Positions 9,113 to 60,570 of a stretch of 64,000 nt of DNA are shown here, piece by piece. Source of the DNA: an uncultured Alphaproteobacteria bacterium (lineage in GTDB: Bacteria > Pseudomonadota > Alphaproteobacteria > RF32 > CAG-239); the NCBI GenBank assembly GCA_934229625.1, contig CAKQDU010000008.1, positions 360-64,359 of the forward strand, in the 5' to 3' direction. The position numbers were made by a program, and so were the translations under genes. The notes under the pieces were generated by a model. It was not told where the DNA came from, did not search any database, and worked only from the letters and a program-made list of their open reading frames with translations. How positions within the stretch are numbered: the first letter of the stretch is position 1; each line of letters opens with the position of its first letter.

Positions 9113-10120
9113 TTATTTGCCATACTCTTTGATTAGTTTTTTATAAGTAAAATAGTTTTTAAGTTTATGTCCGCGCCAGCCCAGAAAACCTTTATGATTT
9201 AATTCTGTTAATTCTTCGGCAAAAAGTTTCCATATAGTTTCTTTGGTATTTTGCGTGGTTTCGGAACATCTTTTTAATTGTTCAGCCAAAATTACCGGAA
9301 TGAATTTGTTTTTAATAAATTGTAATTCTTTAGCATTTGTGCATTTCTGATAAAGATTGCAAACAAAAAAAGTTCCGACAGTATAGTCGCTTATAGTTTG
9401 CGGCGTTGATTTTTGTTTGGATATAGACTGAGGATTTATGGTATAAAAATAAAGTTTAGCATCCAAAATAGCCGTTCTGGGCTTGCGAGCCAAAACCGCA
9501 TAAGTGTGCGGATAATCTTCAAAATGAATTTTCGGTATAAATTCCAAACCATTCAAAAGCTCGCGCTTATAAAGCTTGGTCCACACATTAAAAGAAATCC
9601 TATATTTACCATGTCTGCTCTGAAAAAACAGCGGAGTATCTGTAACTTTAATCTTAATTTTAGATAAATTATACTTTTGCGGAATAATATTATGACCGGT
9701 TTTATTTTTCAAAAAGCCAAAGCATACCATTTCTGCCTGATATTTTTCAGCACAGCTGTATGCTGCTTCCAAACATTGCGGATGCAGACAGTCATCAGAA
9801 TCCAGAAAATAAACATATTCGCCTTTTGCTTGTTTCAAAGCATTGTTGCGAGCCATGCTCAAGCCTTGATTAGCTTGATTTATTATAACAAAACGCGCAT
9901 CTTTGTCGGCGTATTGCCGTAAAATCTGCAAAGAATTATCCTTTGAACCATCATTCACGCAAATCGCTTGCCAATGCTGATAGGTTTGCGCCAGCAAGCT
10001 GTCCAGACATTCCGGCAGATATTTTTCCACATTATATATCGGAATAATTACTGAAACAAGTTTATCGCAGATGTTTTTTTCTGATTTTATTACCATAACT
10101 TTCTCCATTAAAAGTGGCAA
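9113..10120 (-). CDS. family-2 glycosyltransferase
   Basis: VSVIIPIYNVEKYL...NDGSKDNS...YFLDSDD (DXD) motifs; probable operon with upstream ABC exporter. Confidence 0.85.
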   Translation of the reverse strand: MPLLMEKVMVIKSEKNICDKLVSVIIPIYNVEKYLPECLDSLLAQTYQHWQAICVNDGSKDNSLQILRQYADKDARFVIINQANQGLSMARNNALKQAKGEYVYFLDSDDCLHPQCLEAAYSCAEKYQAEMVCFGFLKNKTGHNIIPQKYNLSKIKIKVTDTPLFFQSRHGKYRISFNVWTKLYKRELLNGLEFIPKIHFEDYPHTYAVLARKPRTAILDAKLYFYTINPQSISKQKSTPQTISDYTVGTFFVCNLYQKCTNAKELQFIKNKFIPVILAEQLKRCSETTQNTKETIWKLFAEELTELNHKGFLGWRGHKLKNYFTYKKLIKEYGK

Positions 10121-44868: not shown

Positions 44869-45148
44869 TTGACTTTAGTTAAACGTCTGTTATAGAATTG
44901 GTACGTAAACAACATAATTTTAGAGGAAAGAAAGATGAAAAATAAGCTATTCAAAGGTCTCTCTCTCTCTCTGCAAATCCTAAACATCTGATTAAAGGCG
45001 TATTTTCTGCCGCTCAGCGTGTTTTTGCAGAGTTCGGCGTAAAAAATCACACATTCGGAAATAACAAGTTCAGTAACAACTCTATAAAGGGTTCTGGATT
45101 GCTTCGTCGTTGCACTCCTCGCAATGACGCTTGCTCTACTGGTCGTTC
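44869..45148 (+). promoter_or_regulatory. promoter-leader module of pilin paralog 3 (ttgact 44869-44874, tataga 44891-44896, uORF 44935-44991 with (TC)7)
   Basis: same module as 37812-38100. Confidence 0.6.
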
Positions 45149-45761
45149 CATGATAGAAATGCTCGGCGTTCTAGCTATTATCGGTGTGCTGAGTGTCGGC
45201 GGCATTGCCGGTTATTCCAAAGCAATGGAAAAATGGAAAATAAACAAAACCATTGAAGAATACTCTATGTTAATAACCGGACTTATAGAATATAAAGACA
45301 ATTTTATCAAAAACACCCCGACAGAAACTGATGTATATCTTCCTGATTTTATTCAGGCCGCAAATTTAGTACCTGAAACTTGGAAAAAAGGCGGTTCATC
45401 ATATATGTATGATACTTTAGGAAACAGGGTTAATATATACTTTTCCAACACAGAAAATATTTCCGGCACCCGATATGTCTTTGATATATGGTTTGCTCAA
45501 TCCGCCTCATCAAATAATTCTCTTGCATATAATTTATGCAGAGCTTTTTATCAAGATGTTGGAATTGCCATGTCTTCAAATGTACTGGCAATAATAGTAC
45601 AAAGAGGAAAACACTTTGCATATGGAGATACTTTATGCCACGAAGGGACAGATGAAAAAGGCAACCCAAGACATTGTTTGCGTGATATGAAATTATCAGA
45701 AATTAGTGATATTTGCAAAACCTGCCAGACAACTAATTGCGCTGTGTATCTTGTTTTTTAA
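45099..45761 (+). CDS. type-IV-prepilin-like protein, paralog 3
   Basis: ...RNDACSTG|RSMIEMLGVLAIIGVLSVGGIAGY; C-terminal LCHEGTDEKGNPRHCLRDMKLSEISDICKTC. Confidence 0.6.
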   Translation: MLRRCTPRNDACSTGRSMIEMLGVLAIIGVLSVGGIAGYSKAMEKWKINKTIEEYSMLITGLIEYKDNFIKNTPTETDVYLPDFIQAANLVPETWKKGGSSYMYDTLGNRVNIYFSNTENISGTRYVFDIWFAQSASSNNSLAYNLCRAFYQDVGIAMSSNVLAIIVQRGKHFAYGDTLCHEGTDEKGNPRHCLRDMKLSEISDICKTCQTTNCAVYLVF

Positions 45762-45785: not shown

Positions 45786-46060
45786 TTGACTTATGGCGTG
45801 ATACTGTTATAGAATTGGAGTGTAAACAATATAATTTTAGAGGAAAGAAAGATGAAAAATAAGCTATTCAAAGGTCTCTCTCTCTCTCTGCAAATCCTAA
45901 ACATCTGATTAAAGGCGTATTTTTTGCCGCTCAGCGTGTTTTTGCAGAGTCCGGCATAAAAAATCATACATCCGGAAATAACAAGTTCAGTAGCTACTCT
46001 ATAAAGGGTTCTGGATTGCTTCGCGTTGCTCGCAATGACGTCTGCAGCGTGGGACGCTCT
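45786..46060 (+). promoter_or_regulatory. promoter-leader module of pilin paralog 4 (ttgact 45786-45791, tataga 45808-45813, uORF 45852-45908 with (TC)7)
   Basis: same module; 6-nt in-frame deletion in the leader-peptide region relative to other copies. Confidence 0.6.
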
Positions 46061-46669
46061 ATGATAGAAATGCTTGGCGTGCTAGCTATTATTGCCATTT
46101 TAACAGTCGGCGGAATTGCCGGTTATTCCAAAGCGATGGAAAAGTTTAAGCTCAATAAAGCAATCAGCGAATATAGTATGCTGATTTTTGGCATGCAGGA
46201 CTATATTGAATCTATACAAAAATATACAATTGACGAACCTCATATCGGCGCTGTACAGATAGCTGAAGCAGCAAATTTAATTCCTCAGGCATGGGAAATA
46301 CAAAGCAATTATGGTCTGCTTGATGTATATGGTAATCGCTTACAAATCTATATAGATAAATCACCTCGGCATTTAATTATAGATTTTTATTTGCAAGGAA
46401 TGACTAAAGCCGAAACCAATCAATATACACAAACATTTTCCGGTAAATTATGTATGGAGCTATTCAATAATATAATTATTCCGCTTAACAATACTATTTA
46501 TGAAGCACACATATTCCGTTCTAAAAGTGGTAATGGTAAAAATTTTTCAGGCAAAACTTCATGCTCCTCAAACAAAACCTGTATAAAAGATATGACACTA
46601 AATGATGTACATAATGCCTGTAATTATTGCACCGCAGAAGATAACTGCGCAATTGTCCTAGTATTTTAA
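46016..46669 (+). CDS. type-IV-prepilin-like protein, paralog 4
   Basis: ...RNDVCSVG|RSMIEMLGVLAIIAILTVGGIAGY; C-terminal SCSSNKTCIKDMTLNDVHNACNYC. Confidence 0.6.
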   Translation: MLRVARNDVCSVGRSMIEMLGVLAIIAILTVGGIAGYSKAMEKFKLNKAISEYSMLIFGMQDYIESIQKYTIDEPHIGAVQIAEAANLIPQAWEIQSNYGLLDVYGNRLQIYIDKSPRHLIIDFYLQGMTKAETNQYTQTFSGKLCMELFNNIIIPLNNTIYEAHIFRSKSGNGKNFSGKTSCSSNKTCIKDMTLNDVHNACNYCTAEDNCAIVLVF

Positions 46670-51324: not shown

Positions 51325-51780
51325 ATTATGAACTCCTTAAAGTAATAATTACACAAAAACCGCTCAAAAAAAGCGGTCGGAGAGTTCAACAATCATATCA
51401 TTACAAATGACTCTTTTAGCCTTTCAAGCTATATTTTTTTCAGAGATAATTATATAGCTTTTGGACATACGCTAAAAGCTCCCCGACCATATTGCTATGT
51501 ATCGGGGATATATTTAATCATCGGCAATAGCGAATAACCGATAACTTGACGATGCTATATCCTAGCACCGGTAATGATAAGAGCCGTTGAAAGCCCCGCG
51601 CTAACCGCGCTTGTTTTAATATATAAAGAATTAAAATAAAAAGCAAACAAATTTTTGCCGAATAACAGCCTATGTGCCGACACACTTTTCAACTTATACT
51701 ATGTGCATATTATAAGTTGCTTGTACCATATCACATGCGCAAATGATAACAATTCAAAGTTAAGTACACATAAGCAACCG

Positions 51781-52262
51781 CAAAAAAATCCCGTTATCTA
51801 ATTATAACGAGATTTTTTTAGTTTTTAGTCAGTTGGTTAATTTTTGAGTTTATAATCAATTTTTCTTAAACATTCTTCCAAAATAGAAATTGACTTAGCT
51901 CCGATTTGCGGCCTGACATAAACATTGCTTTTATTAGAGGCCAATAACTCCCCAACTGTAGAAAAATCCTTAGACAACGCATTCAACATTCGTGTTTTCA
52001 ATTTGTTGTCGCCATCATGATATTTCAACAGCTCAGAAATACTCATATCCTTTAGCTTAATATCTTGTCCGACTTTTTCTAAATCAGATAAAGATGTTTT
52101 GCCTTTGACGCCTGATTGTTCTCTAACTTCAGCAAGATACTTGTCAAAAGAAACTTTAAAATCCTCGCTGATAATTTCATAATAATCTTTCACAAAAGCG
52201 CTGAGCAATTGAGCATCACCTTTTTAAAACAAAAAAAGGAGCATTTTTCCAACACTCCTTTT
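51781..52262 (-). repeat. tandem duplication unit, copy 1 (contains 5'-truncated gene 51837..52208)
   Basis: ~480 bp matching 52733-53215; central ~330 bp identical by eye, flanks ~90%; T-run 7 vs 9 in terminator hairpin. Confidence 0.8.
51837..52208 (-). pseudogene. 5'-truncated duplicate of gene 52789..53205
   Basis: protein identical over most of length to the 138-aa copy but N-terminal ~15 residues replaced; in-frame stop just upstream (ttt taa aaa ggt gat). Confidence 0.5.
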
Positions 52263-52278: not shown

Positions 52279-52647
52279 TTAACTATTAATAGCTAAACGT
52301 CCAAGATACAAAATAAAACCACCTATACAAACAACGACAAAGCCAACACACAAAGGAACAATAATATCCCAAACATTCTGAGAATGCACATGGCTAAGAC
52401 GAGAATTTTCAATCTCCACCACGTCGCCTTTTTTGTAAGCCGGATAGTTTTCACTGTCTTGACAAGCCTCAACAGAAAATGTTTTAGGCTCGGTCACGCC
52501 TTCAAACTTAAAAGTCATGTCAGTTGAAGTAGCTGTCACATCTTCGACGGTATAAACTTCACCATCTTGATGCGAAATATCTCCTGAACACGATGCAAAT
52601 CCTACAATGATTAACATCACGATAATAATCTTTCTCATAAGCGACAA
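52279..52647 (-). CDS. lipoprotein with C-terminal TM anchor
   Basis: lipobox VGFASC; C-terminal hydrophobic helix; sits between the duplicated units. Confidence 0.45.
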   Translation of the reverse strand: MSLMRKIIIVMLIIVGFASCSGDISHQDGEVYTVEDVTATSTDMTFKFEGVTEPKTFSVEACQDSENYPAYKKGDVVEIENSRLSHVHSQNVWDIIVPLCVGFVVVCIGGFILYLGRLAINS

Positions 52648-52732
52648 TTTAATTGAATAGAATAATAAATTTTAAAAATATATTATCTGTTTTATATTTT
52701 TTGTCAATACTTTTATTTTAGCGTCAACCTCA

Positions 52733-53215
52733 AAAAAATCCCGTTATCTAATTATAACGAGATTTTTTTTTAGTTTTTAGTCAGTTGGTTAATCTTTGAG
52801 TTTATAATCAATTTTTCTTAAACATTCTTCCAAAATAGAAATTGACTTAGCTCCGATTTGCGGCCTGACATAAACATTGCTTTTATTAGAGGCCAATAAC
52901 TCCCCAACTGTAGAAAAATCCTTAGACAACGCATTCAACATTCGTGTTTTCAATTTGTTGTCGCCATCATGATATTTCAACAGCTCAGAAATACTCATAT
53001 CCTTTAGCTTAATATCTTGTCCGACTTTTTCTAAATCAGATAAAGATGTTTTACCTTTGACGCCTGATTGTTCTCTAACTTCAGCAAGATAATTGTCAAA
53101 CGAAGCTTTAAAATCATCGCTGATAATTTCATAATAATCTTTAACAAAAGCTCTAAGCAATTTAGCATCGCCATTTGCTAAAAGTAATTGTTCAAACTCT
53201 GTCATAAGAATAAAA
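52733..53215 (-). repeat. tandem duplication unit, copy 2 (contains intact gene 52789..53205)
   Basis: see copy 1. Confidence 0.8.
52789..53205 (-). CDS. hypothetical protein (138 aa), HhH-like C-terminus
   Basis: MTEFEQLLLANGDAKLLRAFVKDYYEI...; driven by consensus promoter at 53244-53273. Confidence 0.5.
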   Translation of the reverse strand: MTEFEQLLLANGDAKLLRAFVKDYYEIISDDFKASFDNYLAEVREQSGVKGKTSLSDLEKVGQDIKLKDMSISELLKYHDGDNKLKTRMLNALSKDFSTVGELLASNKSNVYVRPQIGAKSISILEECLRKIDYKLKD

Positions 53216-53243
53216 TTTAGTTAATAATAATGTCTACTGTTTA

Positions 53244-53273
53244 ATTTATAGACAAATTACCGCGCATTGTCAA
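53244..53273 (-). promoter_or_regulatory. consensus sigma-70 promoter (TTGACA-N17-TATAAA) in portable terminator+promoter cassette, copy 1
   Basis: minus-strand ttgaca atgcgcggtaatttgtc tataaa; preceded by ctgatgtt-acaa-aacatcag terminator hairpin; cassette repeated at 54403-54532. Confidence 0.6.
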
Positions 53274-53316
53274 ACAAAAAAGCCTGATGTTACAAAACAT
53301 CAGACTTTATTGTCAG

Positions 53317-54402
53317 CTAGAAATCTTCAATACGATGAAGCATACTCTCAAAAAAGGCTATTTCTACCACATTACTGTGAGCTTTGCAAAAATTCAAAGC
53401 ATCATAATAGCATTTTTTCCGCGCCTTTTTTACATCTACCGCCAAATACAGACGCACACAGATTGCCTCCATCGTATCTGTCAATTTATGTCCCGTATAG
53501 TTCTCAATATACCTAAAAATACCGGCTGTATTTTCTCCCTCAATGATATCCTTAACAATGTACGAAATTGTTGTAATACCGACAAAAAACGCAGCCAAAC
53601 GTGTCAGTTCTGCCAAAAACACTTCAGTTTTCAGCTGCGGATAAGCCTTGCAAACTTCTGGCATTTCCGTACCGACTGTACTGAATGCCATTAAAAAGCG
53701 CAGCAAATCCACACTATCTGTTTTAATAAGCTGCTGAATAATTTCCGGTGCCGGATAGTTTTTGAACGTAAATTTACTAAGCAGCCACTTGCTGACTTTT
53801 TTATTTTGAAGTTCCAAAATATCCAACTGCAAATCAACATCAGGCAACAGCTTTTGAGCTACCACATTATCTGGTAAATAATGCATAGCTCTTTCCAGCG
53901 CCCAAAGTTTTTCCTTAGCCGGATTTTCAGCATTTTTAGCCTGTTTCAGCAACAAACGCAAAAGCCGAATACTACTGAACCTACCGACATAATACGACAG
54001 TTTACGGCATTTAGATTCCAGCGGCTCGCCGTAATCATCACGCTTGCACTCACCATAACCGGAACTCATAGCCACCAACTTTTGTTCAGCTTCAGCACTA
54101 AGCGCATGGTCCATCATATAGGTGTATTCGCTGTCCAAAATGAGCTGTTCCAATTCAGCACCGTACGGAATTTCTTGGCGTGAATGAATAGCAACTCCAA
54201 GCAGTTTGACCGGATTTAAGTTAATATAATTCAACATTTTTTCATCCGGCATGTGTGAGAATTGCTCTACCAACAGCTGCTCTGCCTGCTGAGCATCTTT
54301 TGCTTTGCACACATGGGTCACAAGTTTCAAAATTTGCTCAGGGATAAGTTTACCTTGTTCAGCATCATCCCACGAAAACTCAGAATAATCAAAATTTGCC
54401 AT
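53317..54402 (-). CDS. MANFDY-family hypothetical protein, paralog A (361 aa)
   Basis: intact ORF; shares N-terminus MANFDY.EF and C-terminus ...EIAFF....IEDF with locus 54516-55378. Confidence 0.55.
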   Translation of the reverse strand: MANFDYSEFSWDDAEQGKLIPEQILKLVTHVCKAKDAQQAEQLLVEQFSHMPDEKMLNYINLNPVKLLGVAIHSRQEIPYGAELEQLILDSEYTYMMDHALSAEAEQKLVAMSSGYGECKRDDYGEPLESKCRKLSYYVGRFSSIRLLRLLLKQAKNAENPAKEKLWALERAMHYLPDNVVAQKLLPDVDLQLDILELQNKKVSKWLLSKFTFKNYPAPEIIQQLIKTDSVDLLRFLMAFSTVGTEMPEVCKAYPQLKTEVFLAELTRLAAFFVGITTISYIVKDIIEGENTAGIFRYIENYTGHKLTDTMEAICVRLYLAVDVKKARKKCYYDALNFCKAHSNVVEIAFFESMLHRIEDF

Positions 54403-54441
54403 AATATATAAAATTTAGTTAATAATAATGTCTACTGTTTA

Positions 54442-54471
54442 ATTTATAGACAAATTACCGCGCATTGTCAA
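54442..54471 (-). promoter_or_regulatory. consensus sigma-70 promoter, cassette copy 2
   Basis: identical ttgaca-N17-tataaa upstream of 53317..54402. Confidence 0.6.
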
Positions 54472-54515
54472 ACAAAAAAAGCCTGATGTTACAAAACATC
54501 AGACTTTATTGTCAG

Positions 54516-55378
54516 TTAGAAATCTTCAATATTACGCAGAATATCTCTGAAAAATGCAATCTCTGGTATTTTTTTCCAGACATCGCAAAGTTTTTTAGCG
54601 TGATATAAGCACTCTTGGCGAACCTGTTCGTTATCCCCCTCAAGATACAGCTTCACATGAATTCCCTCCATTGTGTCAGACCACGGCGCATGCCGGCTAT
54701 CTTCAATATGCTTTATAAATTCAGAAATCCTGAGAGCGTGATATTTTTTTCGTCATCAAGACCTATCATTCTGGTCTTCTCATTGTCTAAAAGCATAAAT
54801 GGACCAATCTTTACAAGATGAGTAAGACGAGCCAATTCAGCTAAATACACCTCCAGTTTAAGCTGAGGCAAAGCTTGACAAACCTCCTTGATTTTTGTAC
54901 CTGCAATACTATGTGAAAGCAAATAGCGCAAAGGTTTAATCATCTTCAGCTGAACAAATTTTTCAATAACCTGTTCTTGCGGATATTTCAGATAGTCAAA
55001 ATGACGAAGCAGCCTCATGGCAACTCTTTCATTCTGAAGGTTCAAAATGTCCAACTGCAAATCACAATCATCAAGAAGTTTGTTTGAATCATCGTCAAAC
55101 ATAAATTCTAAAGCCACATCCAAACCCCAAAGATTTTCATGCGACGGGTCTGGCAGCTGCTTGGCTTTTTCTACCAACAATCGGATTACATCGACGTTGC
55201 TTTTACGTTGAAGATAACCATACAGACGTCTAACTTTTTTATCAAGAATAGTAAAATATTCATCTCTTTCAATGTTTCCATACCCTGGACACACGTCGAG
55301 AACAAGTTTGAACTGTTCTTTATCAAACTTAGAATTATCACTATTCTTCAAAAACTCAAAATAATCAAAATTTGCCAT
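54516..55378 (-). pseudogene. MANFDY-family paralog B, interrupted by a 1-nt frameshift in an A7 tract (54744-54750)
   Basis: N-terminal part 54713..55378 (frame 2) ends ...DDEKNITLSGFLNL*; downstream frame-0 continuation 54516-54752 encodes ...SDTMEGIHVKLYLEGD...EIAFFRDILRNIEDF* matching paralog A C-terminus; inserting one A restores a ~290-aa ORF. Confidence 0.7.
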
Positions 55379-55545
55379 AATATATAATATAAAGTTAATA
55401 ATTAAGTTAACACTTTATAATGTAGACAAATTTTACAAAAAGTCAACAAAAAAACGATATTTAAAAAGTGGCGAAAAATAAAAACATAAATGCTTGGGGC
55501 TGATTTTTTAAGAAAAAAAGACGCATAACCAATATAAATGAATTA

Positions 55546-56265
55546 TTATTTTTCATAAGAATGACAACAAGCTTTCAGAATTGGCAAATATTTTTCATCT
55601 ATGGCAAAATTTTCAGGATACGGATGTTGCAGCAAATCGTGAATATCCGGATTTATCGCTACTTCTTGCGGAATAAAGTGCCGACAAAAAGCACACATCG
55701 CCGCCGCCAAATTTTCGGTATTATAACCGATTTTCCGCAATAAAATCTCCGGATTGTTTTCTTCTACTTTTTCTGCGTCATTCAAATCATACCACAATCC
55801 GATACCATTTTCGGCCAATTTCTGCCACGGGAAAGCCGCTCCAGGGTCTGGCTTGCGTGTCGGAGCGATATCCGAGTGTCCAACCACGTTTTTTGCCGGA
55901 ATATGATGACGTTCAATAATCCTCTGACACAGTTCAATCAAACTTTGTATCTGCCGTTCGCTATACGGCTCTTGCCCCATTGACATAGTGCTGATTTCTA
56001 TACCGATGGAATTATGGTTCAGATTATCAAACTCACGCCATGAGCTTATGCCGGCATGCCAAGCGCGTTTTTCTTCCGGCACCAGCTGTGTCACATCGCC
56101 GTTCAACCCCACCACATAATGCGCGCTGAGTTCTTCTTTTTCCAGCACGGCAATCATATCTTTGGTGTCATGCGCGCTGCAATGCAAAACCAAAGCGCTG
56201 ATTTTTGCAGGACGTTCGTTAAAATACGGCAACATATGAGTTCTCATTTTTTCCTCTATAAACAA
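55546..56265 (-). CDS. ampD: N-acetylmuramoyl-L-alanine amidase (AmpD-type)
   Basis: Amidase_2 motifs: AWHAG, GIEI, VVGHSDIAPTRKPDPG. Confidence 0.8.
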   Translation of the reverse strand: MFIEEKMRTHMLPYFNERPAKISALVLHCSAHDTKDMIAVLEKEELSAHYVVGLNGDVTQLVPEEKRAWHAGISSWREFDNLNHNSIGIEISTMSMGQEPYSERQIQSLIELCQRIIERHHIPAKNVVGHSDIAPTRKPDPGAAFPWQKLAENGIGLWYDLNDAEKVEENNPEILLRKIGYNTENLAAAMCAFCRHFIPQEVAINPDIHDLLQHPYPENFAIDEKYLPILKACCHSYEK

Positions 56266-57017
56266 ATAAACGAATATTGGGTCGGATAGTCTTTTGGTTG
56301 GCTGATTAGTCCCAGATGTGTGTTGCGGCGATAGCTGAAATAGCCGTTTTGCGCCGGATATGTATCTATATGCGAATTAACGACATTGTCAATCCCCAAA
56401 TTATGCAACTTATCTTCCAAGTAGCCGCTTAAATCAAAATAAAAATGCTCGCTGTCTTTTCCGGCGGCAAAATATTTTTCATTAGCGGAATTTTCTTTGA
56501 GCAGCGTTGCCCGCATATCATTCTGCACTTCAAACGAAGCTTGCTGCATACAAGGTCCAATCGCGGCGGCAATATTTTTTAGCTCGGCGCCTTTACGCAG
56601 CATTAAAGCCACGGTGTTTTCCACCACTCCGCGATAAGCTCCGCGCCAACCGGCGTGCGCCGCGCCGATAACCCCGTGTTTGTAATCGGCAAGCAGCACC
56701 GGCGCGCAGTCGGCAGTTTTTATACCAAGCAAAATATTGGGATTAGTCGTCACCGCACCATCGGCGATAATCGTAAACTGCTGCGGTAGGTTTGCTTCTA
56801 CCACCGTATTGGAAACGCCCTGATTCAGCGTAAACATATCTTCATAATTTTTATGAAAATACGCGGTGATAATCTCAAAATTCTGCCGCACCGCAACTTT
56901 TGAATCTTGGCTGTTGTAGTTGGTGTTAAGCGAGGCGTATTTCCCCTGCGACACACCGCCTTTGGCGCCAAAAAAGCAATGCTTTGCGGCAATCAAGTTA
57001 GAAGCCTGCCAACTCAT
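56256..57017 (-). CDS. pgeF: purine nucleoside phosphorylase / laccase-domain protein (YfiH/PgeF)
   Basis: TADCAPVLL...GAAHAGWRG signature of the Cu-oxidase_4/PgeF family. Confidence 0.8.
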   Translation of the reverse strand: MSWQASNLIAAKHCFFGAKGGVSQGKYASLNTNYNSQDSKVAVRQNFEIITAYFHKNYEDMFTLNQGVSNTVVEANLPQQFTIIADGAVTTNPNILLGIKTADCAPVLLADYKHGVIGAAHAGWRGAYRGVVENTVALMLRKGAELKNIAAAIGPCMQQASFEVQNDMRATLLKENSANEKYFAAGKDSEHFYFDLSGYLEDKLHNLGIDNVVNSHIDTYPAQNGYFSYRRNTHLGLISQPKDYPTQYSFICL

Positions 57018-59223: not shown

Positions 59224-60570
59224 TTAGTAATGGTCAGCCCACATGTCATCAAGTTTCTTTTGCAATGCAGCATCTTTACGTCTTTCTGCTTCTTCACGTC
59301 TCTTTTCTTTTGCTCTTGCTAATATTTCTTTTTCAGTATACAAACCCAATCCTTCTGATTCCAACCATTTTTTATATTTCTCACGGTTTTTAATACTCTT
59401 ATATTTATCACTTGCTATTTGATTAACTTTTCTTTCAAATTCCTTTTCAGCTGCTTCTTTTTGGTAGGCCTCCTGAGCTCTCTTTTTTTCTTCTTCTTCA
59501 TATTGACGACACGCTTTTATGTGTTCTTCTTTATCATACTTTGCTCTAATCTCAGAATCATTTTCAAAAAGCACCTCATGCATATTTGCTGAATTATCTT
59601 TTGCTGTTTCCAAAACAAGTTTTATTGTTTTTTCTTTATCACCTAACCTGAAATTTTTAATTGCATTTGACAAATATTCATAAGTTCTTTCAGTTGCAAC
59701 GTGTTTATCAAATACTTTTATCAAACGATAAATAGTTGCCTTATTTTTATAATCTGAAAACACAGCTTTTGTAATATCTTCATCCGACAATTTTACCCAA
59801 CAATGCTTTTCTTTTAACTTCAGCAATGCTGTTGTCATTTTCATATTTTGTTTGGCAGCAGGAACCAAAGCTGCTAAATTATTGCTTAATCTATATGAAT
59901 TATTGGATTGTGCCAATAATTTAACAAAATACTCTTTATCTTCATCTGACAAATCTAATGCTTTAATCAAATTGCCATTATAATTTTTATGAAGTTCAAC
60001 CATAGATTTTCCTGTTTTTTCAGGCAAACTATCAATAAATTCTTCATCGGCTTGATGCAAATAAGCAGCTTCTTTCAAATTTTCAACAAGAGAATCATTT
60101 GAAATAACATATGGATTATATTCTGGATTACCTAATTTTAAGCCACTATCATATAGTTTTTGTACATAATCGGCGTCTATAGCCAAAGCTTCCTGTAATT
60201 TTTCATATTTTCCGGCAGCTTCTTCTATTGTATAATATTGTTTTCTTTTTATTTCTTCCTGCTTTTGTTGTTCTTCTTCTTGTTTTTTGATATTTTCTTT
60301 CTCTATATCATCTTTCCATTTTTTGGAATTTTCTTTTTCTAATTTTAGCTTATAGTTGTTTATTTTATTTCTAATAGCTATACGTTTTTCTCTATCAGTA
60401 TCCAATTGCTCATCAAAATCCAATACATCCTCGTCGTCATACCCTTTGTCAAAGAATTTTTGTTCAGCTTTACGCCCCTCATCATCTGTAATTTTCTTTT
60501 CAAATTTAAGATACGCCATTGCTTTATATTCAACATAAGCATTTATAAATTCTTCATCAAATTTTCTCAT
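59224..60570 (-). CDS. K/E-rich coiled-coil hypothetical protein (448 aa)
   Basis: long ORF; runs of EEEQQKQEEIKRKQ and KEKRREEAERRKD; adjacent to tRNA-Leu. Confidence 0.45.
   Translation of the reverse strand: MRKFDEEFINAYVEYKAMAYLKFEKKITDDEGRKAEQKFFDKGYDDEDVLDFDEQLDTDREKRIAIRNKINNYKLKLEKENSKKWKDDIEKENIKKQEEEQQKQEEIKRKQYYTIEEAAGKYEKLQEALAIDADYVQKLYDSGLKLGNPEYNPYVISNDSLVENLKEAAYLHQADEEFIDSLPEKTGKSMVELHKNYNGNLIKALDLSDEDKEYFVKLLAQSNNSYRLSNNLAALVPAAKQNMKMTTALLKLKEKHCWVKLSDEDITKAVFSDYKNKATIYRLIKVFDKHVATERTYEYLSNAIKNFRLGDKEKTIKLVLETAKDNSANMHEVLFENDSEIRAKYDKEEHIKACRQYEEEEKKRAQEAYQKEAAEKEFERKVNQIASDKYKSIKNREKYKKWLESEGLGLYTEKEILARAKEKRREEAERRKDAALQKKLDDMWADHY

Follow-up and report, generated by a model that had tools for sequence, protein, structure and literature searches.

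Gene B, an orphan gene in the accessory genome of an uncultured alphaproteobacterium from the human gut, is split into two reading frames by a run of seven A residues (A7) that has eight (A8) in most of its relatives. The A7 form is very probably a young, lineage-fixed frameshift allele, that is, a nascent pseudogene or a truncation, and not a rapidly reversible switch. Both tract lengths circulate in nature, A7 arose from A8 at least twice, and tract length is completely linked to the haplotype on which it sits.

The gene lies in a contiguous stretch of DNA of 64,000 nucleotides, referred to here as the window. An intact tandem copy, paralog A, stands beside it, and these two are the only genes in the window that start with MANFDY. 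Here, we describe the split gene and its relatives, the distribution of A7 and A8 across haplotypes, the setting of the tract, the predicted protein and the variable region around it, and we weigh the explanations that have been offered for the frameshift.

A gene in two frames

The 5' part of gene B is a minus-strand ORF of 221 codons that ends in ...MIGLDDEKNITLSGFLNL in the ORF list (its C-terminal letters are also given as ...DDEKNITLSGFLNL), with its stop 10 codons past the A7 tract. The -1 frame stays open between about 54758 and the stop codon at 54516. Its translation reads ...KKYHALRISEFIKHIEDSRHAPWSDTMEGIHVKLYLEGDNEQVRQECLYHAKKLCDVWKKIPEIAFFRDILRNIEDF, a product of the form ...KKYHALRISEF...EIAFFRDILRNIEDF, and the 3' part in this frame (Table 1) is free of stops and further indels. 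The switch between frames falls inside gacgAAAAAAAtatcac, where the coding-strand A7 is a plus-strand T7 at 54744-54750, the position and sequence at which an earlier note on this DNA had placed it.

Adding one A gives a single continuous ORF of 287 aa, close to the roughly 290 aa that the earlier note had forecast, and we agree with it that the two pieces are one gene divided by a one-base change in a homopolymer. Translations of altered tract lengths show that A5 also restores the frame and that A6 and A9 do not. For the A7 and A8 alleles compared, the tract deletion is the sole indel in the alignment of the gene. Over its entire length the repaired protein matches paralog A (361 aa), with 37% identity (E = 2e-53), a similarity far above chance. 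The aligned region includes the C-terminus encoded after the frameshift, so the match between the shifted frame and the end of paralog A, noted before, holds over the full length. The segment bearing the tract is deleted in paralog A.

Table 1. Features of gene B and its paralog, in window coordinates
Feature	Position	Strand	Basis
Gene B, 5' part, frame 0, truncated product of 221 aa	54713..55378	-	ORF list
Coding-strand A7, site of the 1-nt deletion relative to A8	54744..54750	-	Sequence and tract lengths in 25 related loci
Gene B, 3' part, -1 frame, conserved C-terminal 74 residues	54516..54752	-	Translation, alignments, structure model
Paralog A, intact tandem copy of 361 aa, reading-frame reference	53317..54402	-	ORF list, alignment
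Terminator-like hairpin closing the gene B transcription unit	54478..54507	-	Terminator scan
Hairpin after paralog A, identical to that of gene B	53308..53279		Terminator scan
Promoter-like TTGACT-N16/18-TACATT/CATTAT upstream of gene B	55417..55446	-	Consensus scan only, no evidence of function

Both tract lengths occur in nature

A search with the repaired protein returned 112 relatives. This set includes 102 distinct full-length proteins (285-289 aa, 92-100% identity), carried by ~373 contigs (the sum over the contig counts of the search) and originating from human-gut metagenomes and from MAGs labelled Alphaproteobacteria bacterium. The tract is A8 in all 12 full-length loci in which it was read (L011, L014-L022, L024 and L025); L023, full-length by tblastn, stands outside these 12. 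With these variants and the divergent orthologs, which are also in frame, the intact ORF is the prevalent state among relatives, and it is the ancestral one.

The truncated form is also widespread. The protein collection has an identical 221-aa product in 29 blocks, on no fewer than 22 contigs, which originate from MEGAHIT, SPAdes and Logan assemblies made in several studies, Hadza gut metagenomes among them. For the 10 fetched loci that encode this product the DNA was read, and every one has A7. A7/A8 is thus a true biological polymorphism with both alleles in circulation.

Other collections contributed little. A scan of genome contigs recovered the gene in only two GTDB species representatives, both uncultured Alphaproteobacteria MAGs with an intact copy, and a scan of JGI metagenomes for all tract lengths, a sparse sample, recovered one locus, which is A8. 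Megablast of window 53000-57000 against plasmids gave no match.

Tract length follows haplotype

We aligned an 870-nt region of the gene from 25 loci and the window. Group 1 comprises the window, L001-L010 and L026. The gene haplotype of the window and L001-L010 is the same, without a SNP in the 870 nt, and L026 has it with one extra SNP (N3K). All 12 group-1 contigs read are A7, so every sampled member of the group carries the lesion. Between the group-1 haplotype and every A8 allele there are 8-17 SNPs, several of them private and synonymous. The flanks of group-1 loci match the window at 99.8-100% identity across as much as 19 kb; the exception is L004, which has the group-1 gene haplotype and is recombinant upstream. 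Because these flanks are nearly identical whereas the A8 strains are about 2-2.5% diverged from the window, group 1 represents one widespread strain lineage.

Exact look-ups of predicted products extended the comparison beyond the aligned loci. The protein that the window haplotype would encode with A8 has no exact match among about 15 billion proteins; the closest entries, P0001 (V69L) and P0002 (F141L), both belong to other DNA haplotypes. Nor was there an exact match in about 15 billion proteins for the A7 products predicted from the seven commonest A8 haplotypes (P0011, P0025, P0042, P0009, P0016, P0029 and P0012; 177 contigs together), or for the A9 products predicted from three haplotypes. 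Across ~400 contigs, assessed by exact look-up or by DNA, no haplotype was seen in both tract states. The look-ups and the alignment thus show that tract length is completely linked to haplotype, where tract state means the per-sample consensus (majority) of a metagenome assembly, which would not show an ON subpopulation that is in the minority within its host. The earlier note had put the locus forward as a candidate for ON/OFF phase variation, and this strict linkage speaks against that interpretation.

A second A7 allele, P0108 (L012/L013, two sibling runs), forms group 2. It is 17 SNPs away from group 1, and the two groups have different SNPs 13-37 nt either side of the tract. Since the A7 of group 2 sits on a separate haplotype, the change from A8 to A7 happened at least two times. 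We also considered the movement of A7 between haplotypes by recombination and rejected it, as it is less parsimonious and would require a conversion tract of less than about 50 nt. Such recurrence is expected of a contingency locus and equally of any mutational hot spot. The comparison of orthologs across strains, which the earlier note had suggested as a check, uncovered both tract lengths and a repeated origin of A7, with states that track haplotype.

The downstream frame is undamaged. It has no stop or indel, 11 group-1 contigs show 0 SNPs across the 870 nt of the aligned region, and no secondary degenerative mutation was seen downstream of the lesion in group-1 contigs. A reversion to A8 would for this reason fully restore the gene. 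The lack of secondary damage fits a very recent lesion, or else continued constraint on the 3' part. A fixed pseudogene had been named as an alternative to phase variation, and it is the best fit, with the qualifications that fixation extends to one strain lineage only and that there is no secondary decay so far.

An ordinary tract late in the gene

The 64-kb window holds 69 A7/T7 runs, 19 A8/T8 runs and two T9 runs, and the A7/A8 tract is ordinary for this genome. It covers codons 211-213 of 287, 73% into the gene and away from the 5' end, and in the A8 form it supplies the E-K-K codons of an in-frame GAA AAA AAA TAT (E-K-K-Y). Alleles that are at least 84% identical keep the tract. In the divergent orthologs P0105, P0107 and P0111 the corresponding residues are DDETK or DDETE, E-K-K having become E-T-K or E-T-E, and the tract is interrupted in these three because any threonine codon breaks the A run. 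The description of the tract as phase-variable is hard to sustain for a run that is short, common in the genome, far into the ORF, missing from the paralog and broken up in divergent orthologs.

Indels between strains are mostly one-base changes in A/T runs, and the majority of those are intergenic. Two further frameshifts were observed in coding sequence. An orphan ORF of 448 aa (window 59224..60570, minus strand), intact in the window and without a Pfam match, is split into 200 and 259 aa in the commonest A8 strain lineage (P0011; L019-L021 4814-6159) by an A6-to-A5 change at about window 60020, a lineage-specific homopolymer frameshift. In gene B itself, L025/P0109 has a TG duplication (GCTG to GCTGTG) at about gene nt 540 (about nt 669 of L025), which shifts the frame of an otherwise A8 gene; it is known from a single 971-nt contig and may be an assembly error. 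Taken with the A/T-run indels, these two cases indicate that slippage lesions in accessory orphan genes are general in the species and not specific to this tract.

The predicted protein

Scans of both paralogs and of the neighbouring orphan genes with Pfam, PADLOC and PHROGs gave nothing significant, and the sole true match in those domain scans was Amidase_2 in the gene upstream. A profile HMM search of 1.84 billion representative proteins found 11 family members, most of them 360-420 aa long like paralog A. With just 11 members, no function is transferable, and by this search the MANFDY family is extremely restricted taxonomically. The 287-aa paralog B is without about 83 N-proximal residues that are found in the members of 360-420 aa.

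An alignment of seven sequences gave a confident AlphaFold model of the gene B protein (pLDDT 88.5, pTM 0.87), which consists of 17 helices and is entirely alpha. Among PDB structures, its best matches were to solenoids of the ARM, importin-alpha, PUF and AP-2 kinds, none of them significant (best E = 0.1, TM <= 0.31, 9-15% identity). Like Armadillo, HEAT and PUF alpha-solenoids the predicted fold is entirely helical, but unlike those proteins it has no Pfam match, and the likeness is one of resemblance only. At its N-terminus (MANFDYFEFLKNSDNSKFDKEQ) the protein is acidic and lacks a hydrophobic signal sequence; no signal peptide or membrane segment was found in it, and it is probably cytoplasmic and all-alpha-helical. 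The idea of a switch in a surface or effector gene sits poorly with a product that belongs to no recognisable family and carries neither a signal peptide nor a membrane segment.

Through the frameshift the protein loses its final 74 residues, equivalent to about four helices of the model and including M237, I240, L244-L246, D249, R254, C257 and C265, which are invariant in the family according to the alignment of paralog A and the orthologs. Given the loss of these residues, loss of function is likely, and the truncated 221-aa product would likely be non-functional.

Two shorter entries, P0119 (106 aa) and P0122 (73 aa), start like gene B but then run on into sequence unrelated to it, and may represent chimeric contigs or further alleles that are disrupted or rearranged.

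A strain-variable island

Between ffh and a gene for an AmpD-like amidase lies an island of orphan genes that has a lower GC content and varies between strains, and gene B is part of it. Synteny breaks at about window 55454, just upstream of the putative gene B promoter. In L011, a gene for an ankyrin-repeat protein and aspS precede gene B, replacing the amidase, YfiH-like and phosphopentomutase genes, and the similarity of L023 and L024 to the window ends at this same junction (L011, L023 and L024 upstream of position 9925). On the basis of these loci, the junction is strain-variable. L004 has a 1300-aa orphan protein further upstream.

Downstream, the intergenic sequence and the terminator hairpins are identical after both MANFDY paralogs (Table 1). 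L012 (1121-1764) has no paralog A and carries a 138-aa gene directly after gene B, an arrangement that looks like a deletion between the hairpin/intergenic repeats. A segment of ~455 nt is duplicated at 96% identity (window 52725-53183 and 51775-52229), with one copy containing a 138-aa ORF (52789..53205) and the other a 123-aa copy with a TTG start (51837..52208). The two copies flank a small predicted membrane protein (52279..52647), and the second has a strain-dependent length of 123, 127 or 135 aa. Elsewhere in the window, an (AG)n repeat at about 45889, between the ORFs 45099..45761 and 46016..46669, differs by one unit between the window and L019.

Comparison with known systems

Gene B has features in common with three kinds of system in which slippage at a simple repeat shifts a reading frame. 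Like homopolymer-frameshift pseudogenes of host-associated bacteria, it has an intact ancestral state, a single-base indel in an A/T run and inheritance within a clade, and a neighbouring orphan gene has the same kind of lesion in another lineage. Unlike those pseudogenes, it is without accumulated secondary degenerative mutations.

With classical contingency loci built on simple sequence repeats, such as the poly-G/C tracts of Campylobacter and Neisseria and the tetranucleotides of Haemophilus, it would share slipped-strand mispairing at a coding repeat as the route to a frameshift. In such classical loci the tracts are longer, switching proceeds at about 1e-2 to 1e-5 per generation, single clones are themselves variable, and the genes usually serve surface or restriction-modification functions. 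In gene B, in contrast, the state is lineage-fixed and the tract short and unexceptional.

The third case is inlA of Listeria monocytogenes. Its 5' poly(A) is in frame as A7 and frameshifted as A6, with slippage rates for A6 and A7 of 5.5e-7 and 3.9e-8 (Orsi et al. 2010, PMC2831843). Rates of this kind mark a mutational hot spot, yet are far below those of classical phase variation. The A7/A6 alleles of inlA arose at least two times, and one clade holds both A6 and A7 alleles with the indel as the sole difference (PMC2831843). The two genes are alike in having a short poly(A) within the ORF, where one-base slippage leads to a premature stop, with both lengths circulating and at least two independent frameshifts. 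They differ in that the inlA clade mixes A6 and A7 whereas no gene B haplotype occurs in both states, and in that the tract lies at codon 8 of inlA and at codon 212 of 287 in gene B. Furthermore, inlA encodes a known surface virulence factor, and the gene B protein is without an export signal or an assigned function.

Weighing the explanations

The least credible account is that A7 is a sequencing or assembly error and the gene is intact, with A8, in this strain. Homopolymers are error-prone on some platforms and a single base is at issue, but the identical A7 product recurs on independent short-read contigs from different assemblers and studies, which excludes a one-off error. A8 alleles of other haplotypes moreover come from some of the assembly series that also yielded A7 contigs (for example the Hadza and ERZ2728xxxx MEGAHIT sets), and tract state co-segregates perfectly with linked SNPs. 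The earlier note's alternative of an error is therefore refuted. It is also highly improbable that the A7 allele yields some full-length protein by recoding, either through -1 ribosomal frameshifting at A_AAA_AAU or through transcriptional slippage. The frame-0 codons GA-A AAA AAU do make a formal X_XXY_YYZ heptamer from which a -1 shift leads exactly into the A8 frame, and A/T runs are known slippage sites of RNA polymerase. However, RNA folding of 54760..54640 revealed no downstream stimulatory structure for a -1 shift, this segment folding less stably than its shuffled versions (-20.1 kcal/mol; mean of the shuffles -25.4; z = +1.6). Appreciable transcriptional slippage requires runs of about nine or more, and the frameshifted arrangement is a rare derived state, most orthologs being simply in frame.

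A more serious competitor, though still an unlikely one, is that A7/A8 is a reversible low-frequency ON/OFF element used by selection, with group 1 held OFF in the gut; its named analogues are the A7/A6 tract of Listeria inlA and the 7C tract of M. tuberculosis glpK. The occurrence of both lengths in nature, the independent A8-to-A7 events and the intact downstream frame, which makes the change reversible in principle, are in keeping with this idea, and tracts of 6-7 nt are described as phase-variable elsewhere in three reports (PMC2831843, PMC10334774, 10.1101/717272). On the other side are the ~400 contigs without a haplotype in both states and the A9 products, none of the three predicted ones being found. 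Counting this tract, the 64 kb contain about 90 comparable runs; it lies far from the 5' end and is conserved neither in divergent orthologs nor in paralog A. There is also a non-tract lesion in the same gene, and a neighbouring orphan gene has an A6-to-A5 frameshift in another lineage. We regard as slightly less likely again the fuller version of the idea, namely a slow selectable switch of the inlA/glpK type acting on a protein that is restricted to the lineage, resembles alpha-solenoids and might take part in interactions with the host or with phages, with group 1 held OFF by selection and not by mutation and drift.

The reading that we favour, a young frameshift allele fixed in one lineage, runs as follows. 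The ancestral and prevalent form has the in-frame GAA AAA AAA TAT, from which slippage during replication would have deleted an A, turning A8 into A7, when the window's strain lineage had its common ancestor. Translation now shifts frame and stops 10 codons on, so that the protein is without its conserved C-terminal quarter and is in all likelihood inactive. The mutation has since been inherited stably while the lineage spread among human hosts, and such stable inheritance in a spreading lineage argues for a lineage-fixed allele and against a rapid switch. On this scenario, the loss would be neutral or the gene dispensable.

Significance

The main value of this work is practical, as it offers a way to separate candidates for phase variation from ordinary frameshifts at the strain level. 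When one genome shows a frameshift in a homopolymer, public metagenomes can reveal whether the state of the tract goes with the haplotype, and at gene B this linkage test shows a stable inherited lesion. The lesion is an ordinary phenomenon that brings neither a new mechanism nor a new question. For the biology of this uncultured gut alphaproteobacterium, it is a small data point on the inactivation of accessory orphan genes by slippage at short A/T runs. One such A7 strain is widespread in humans, and its lesion could serve as a strain marker.
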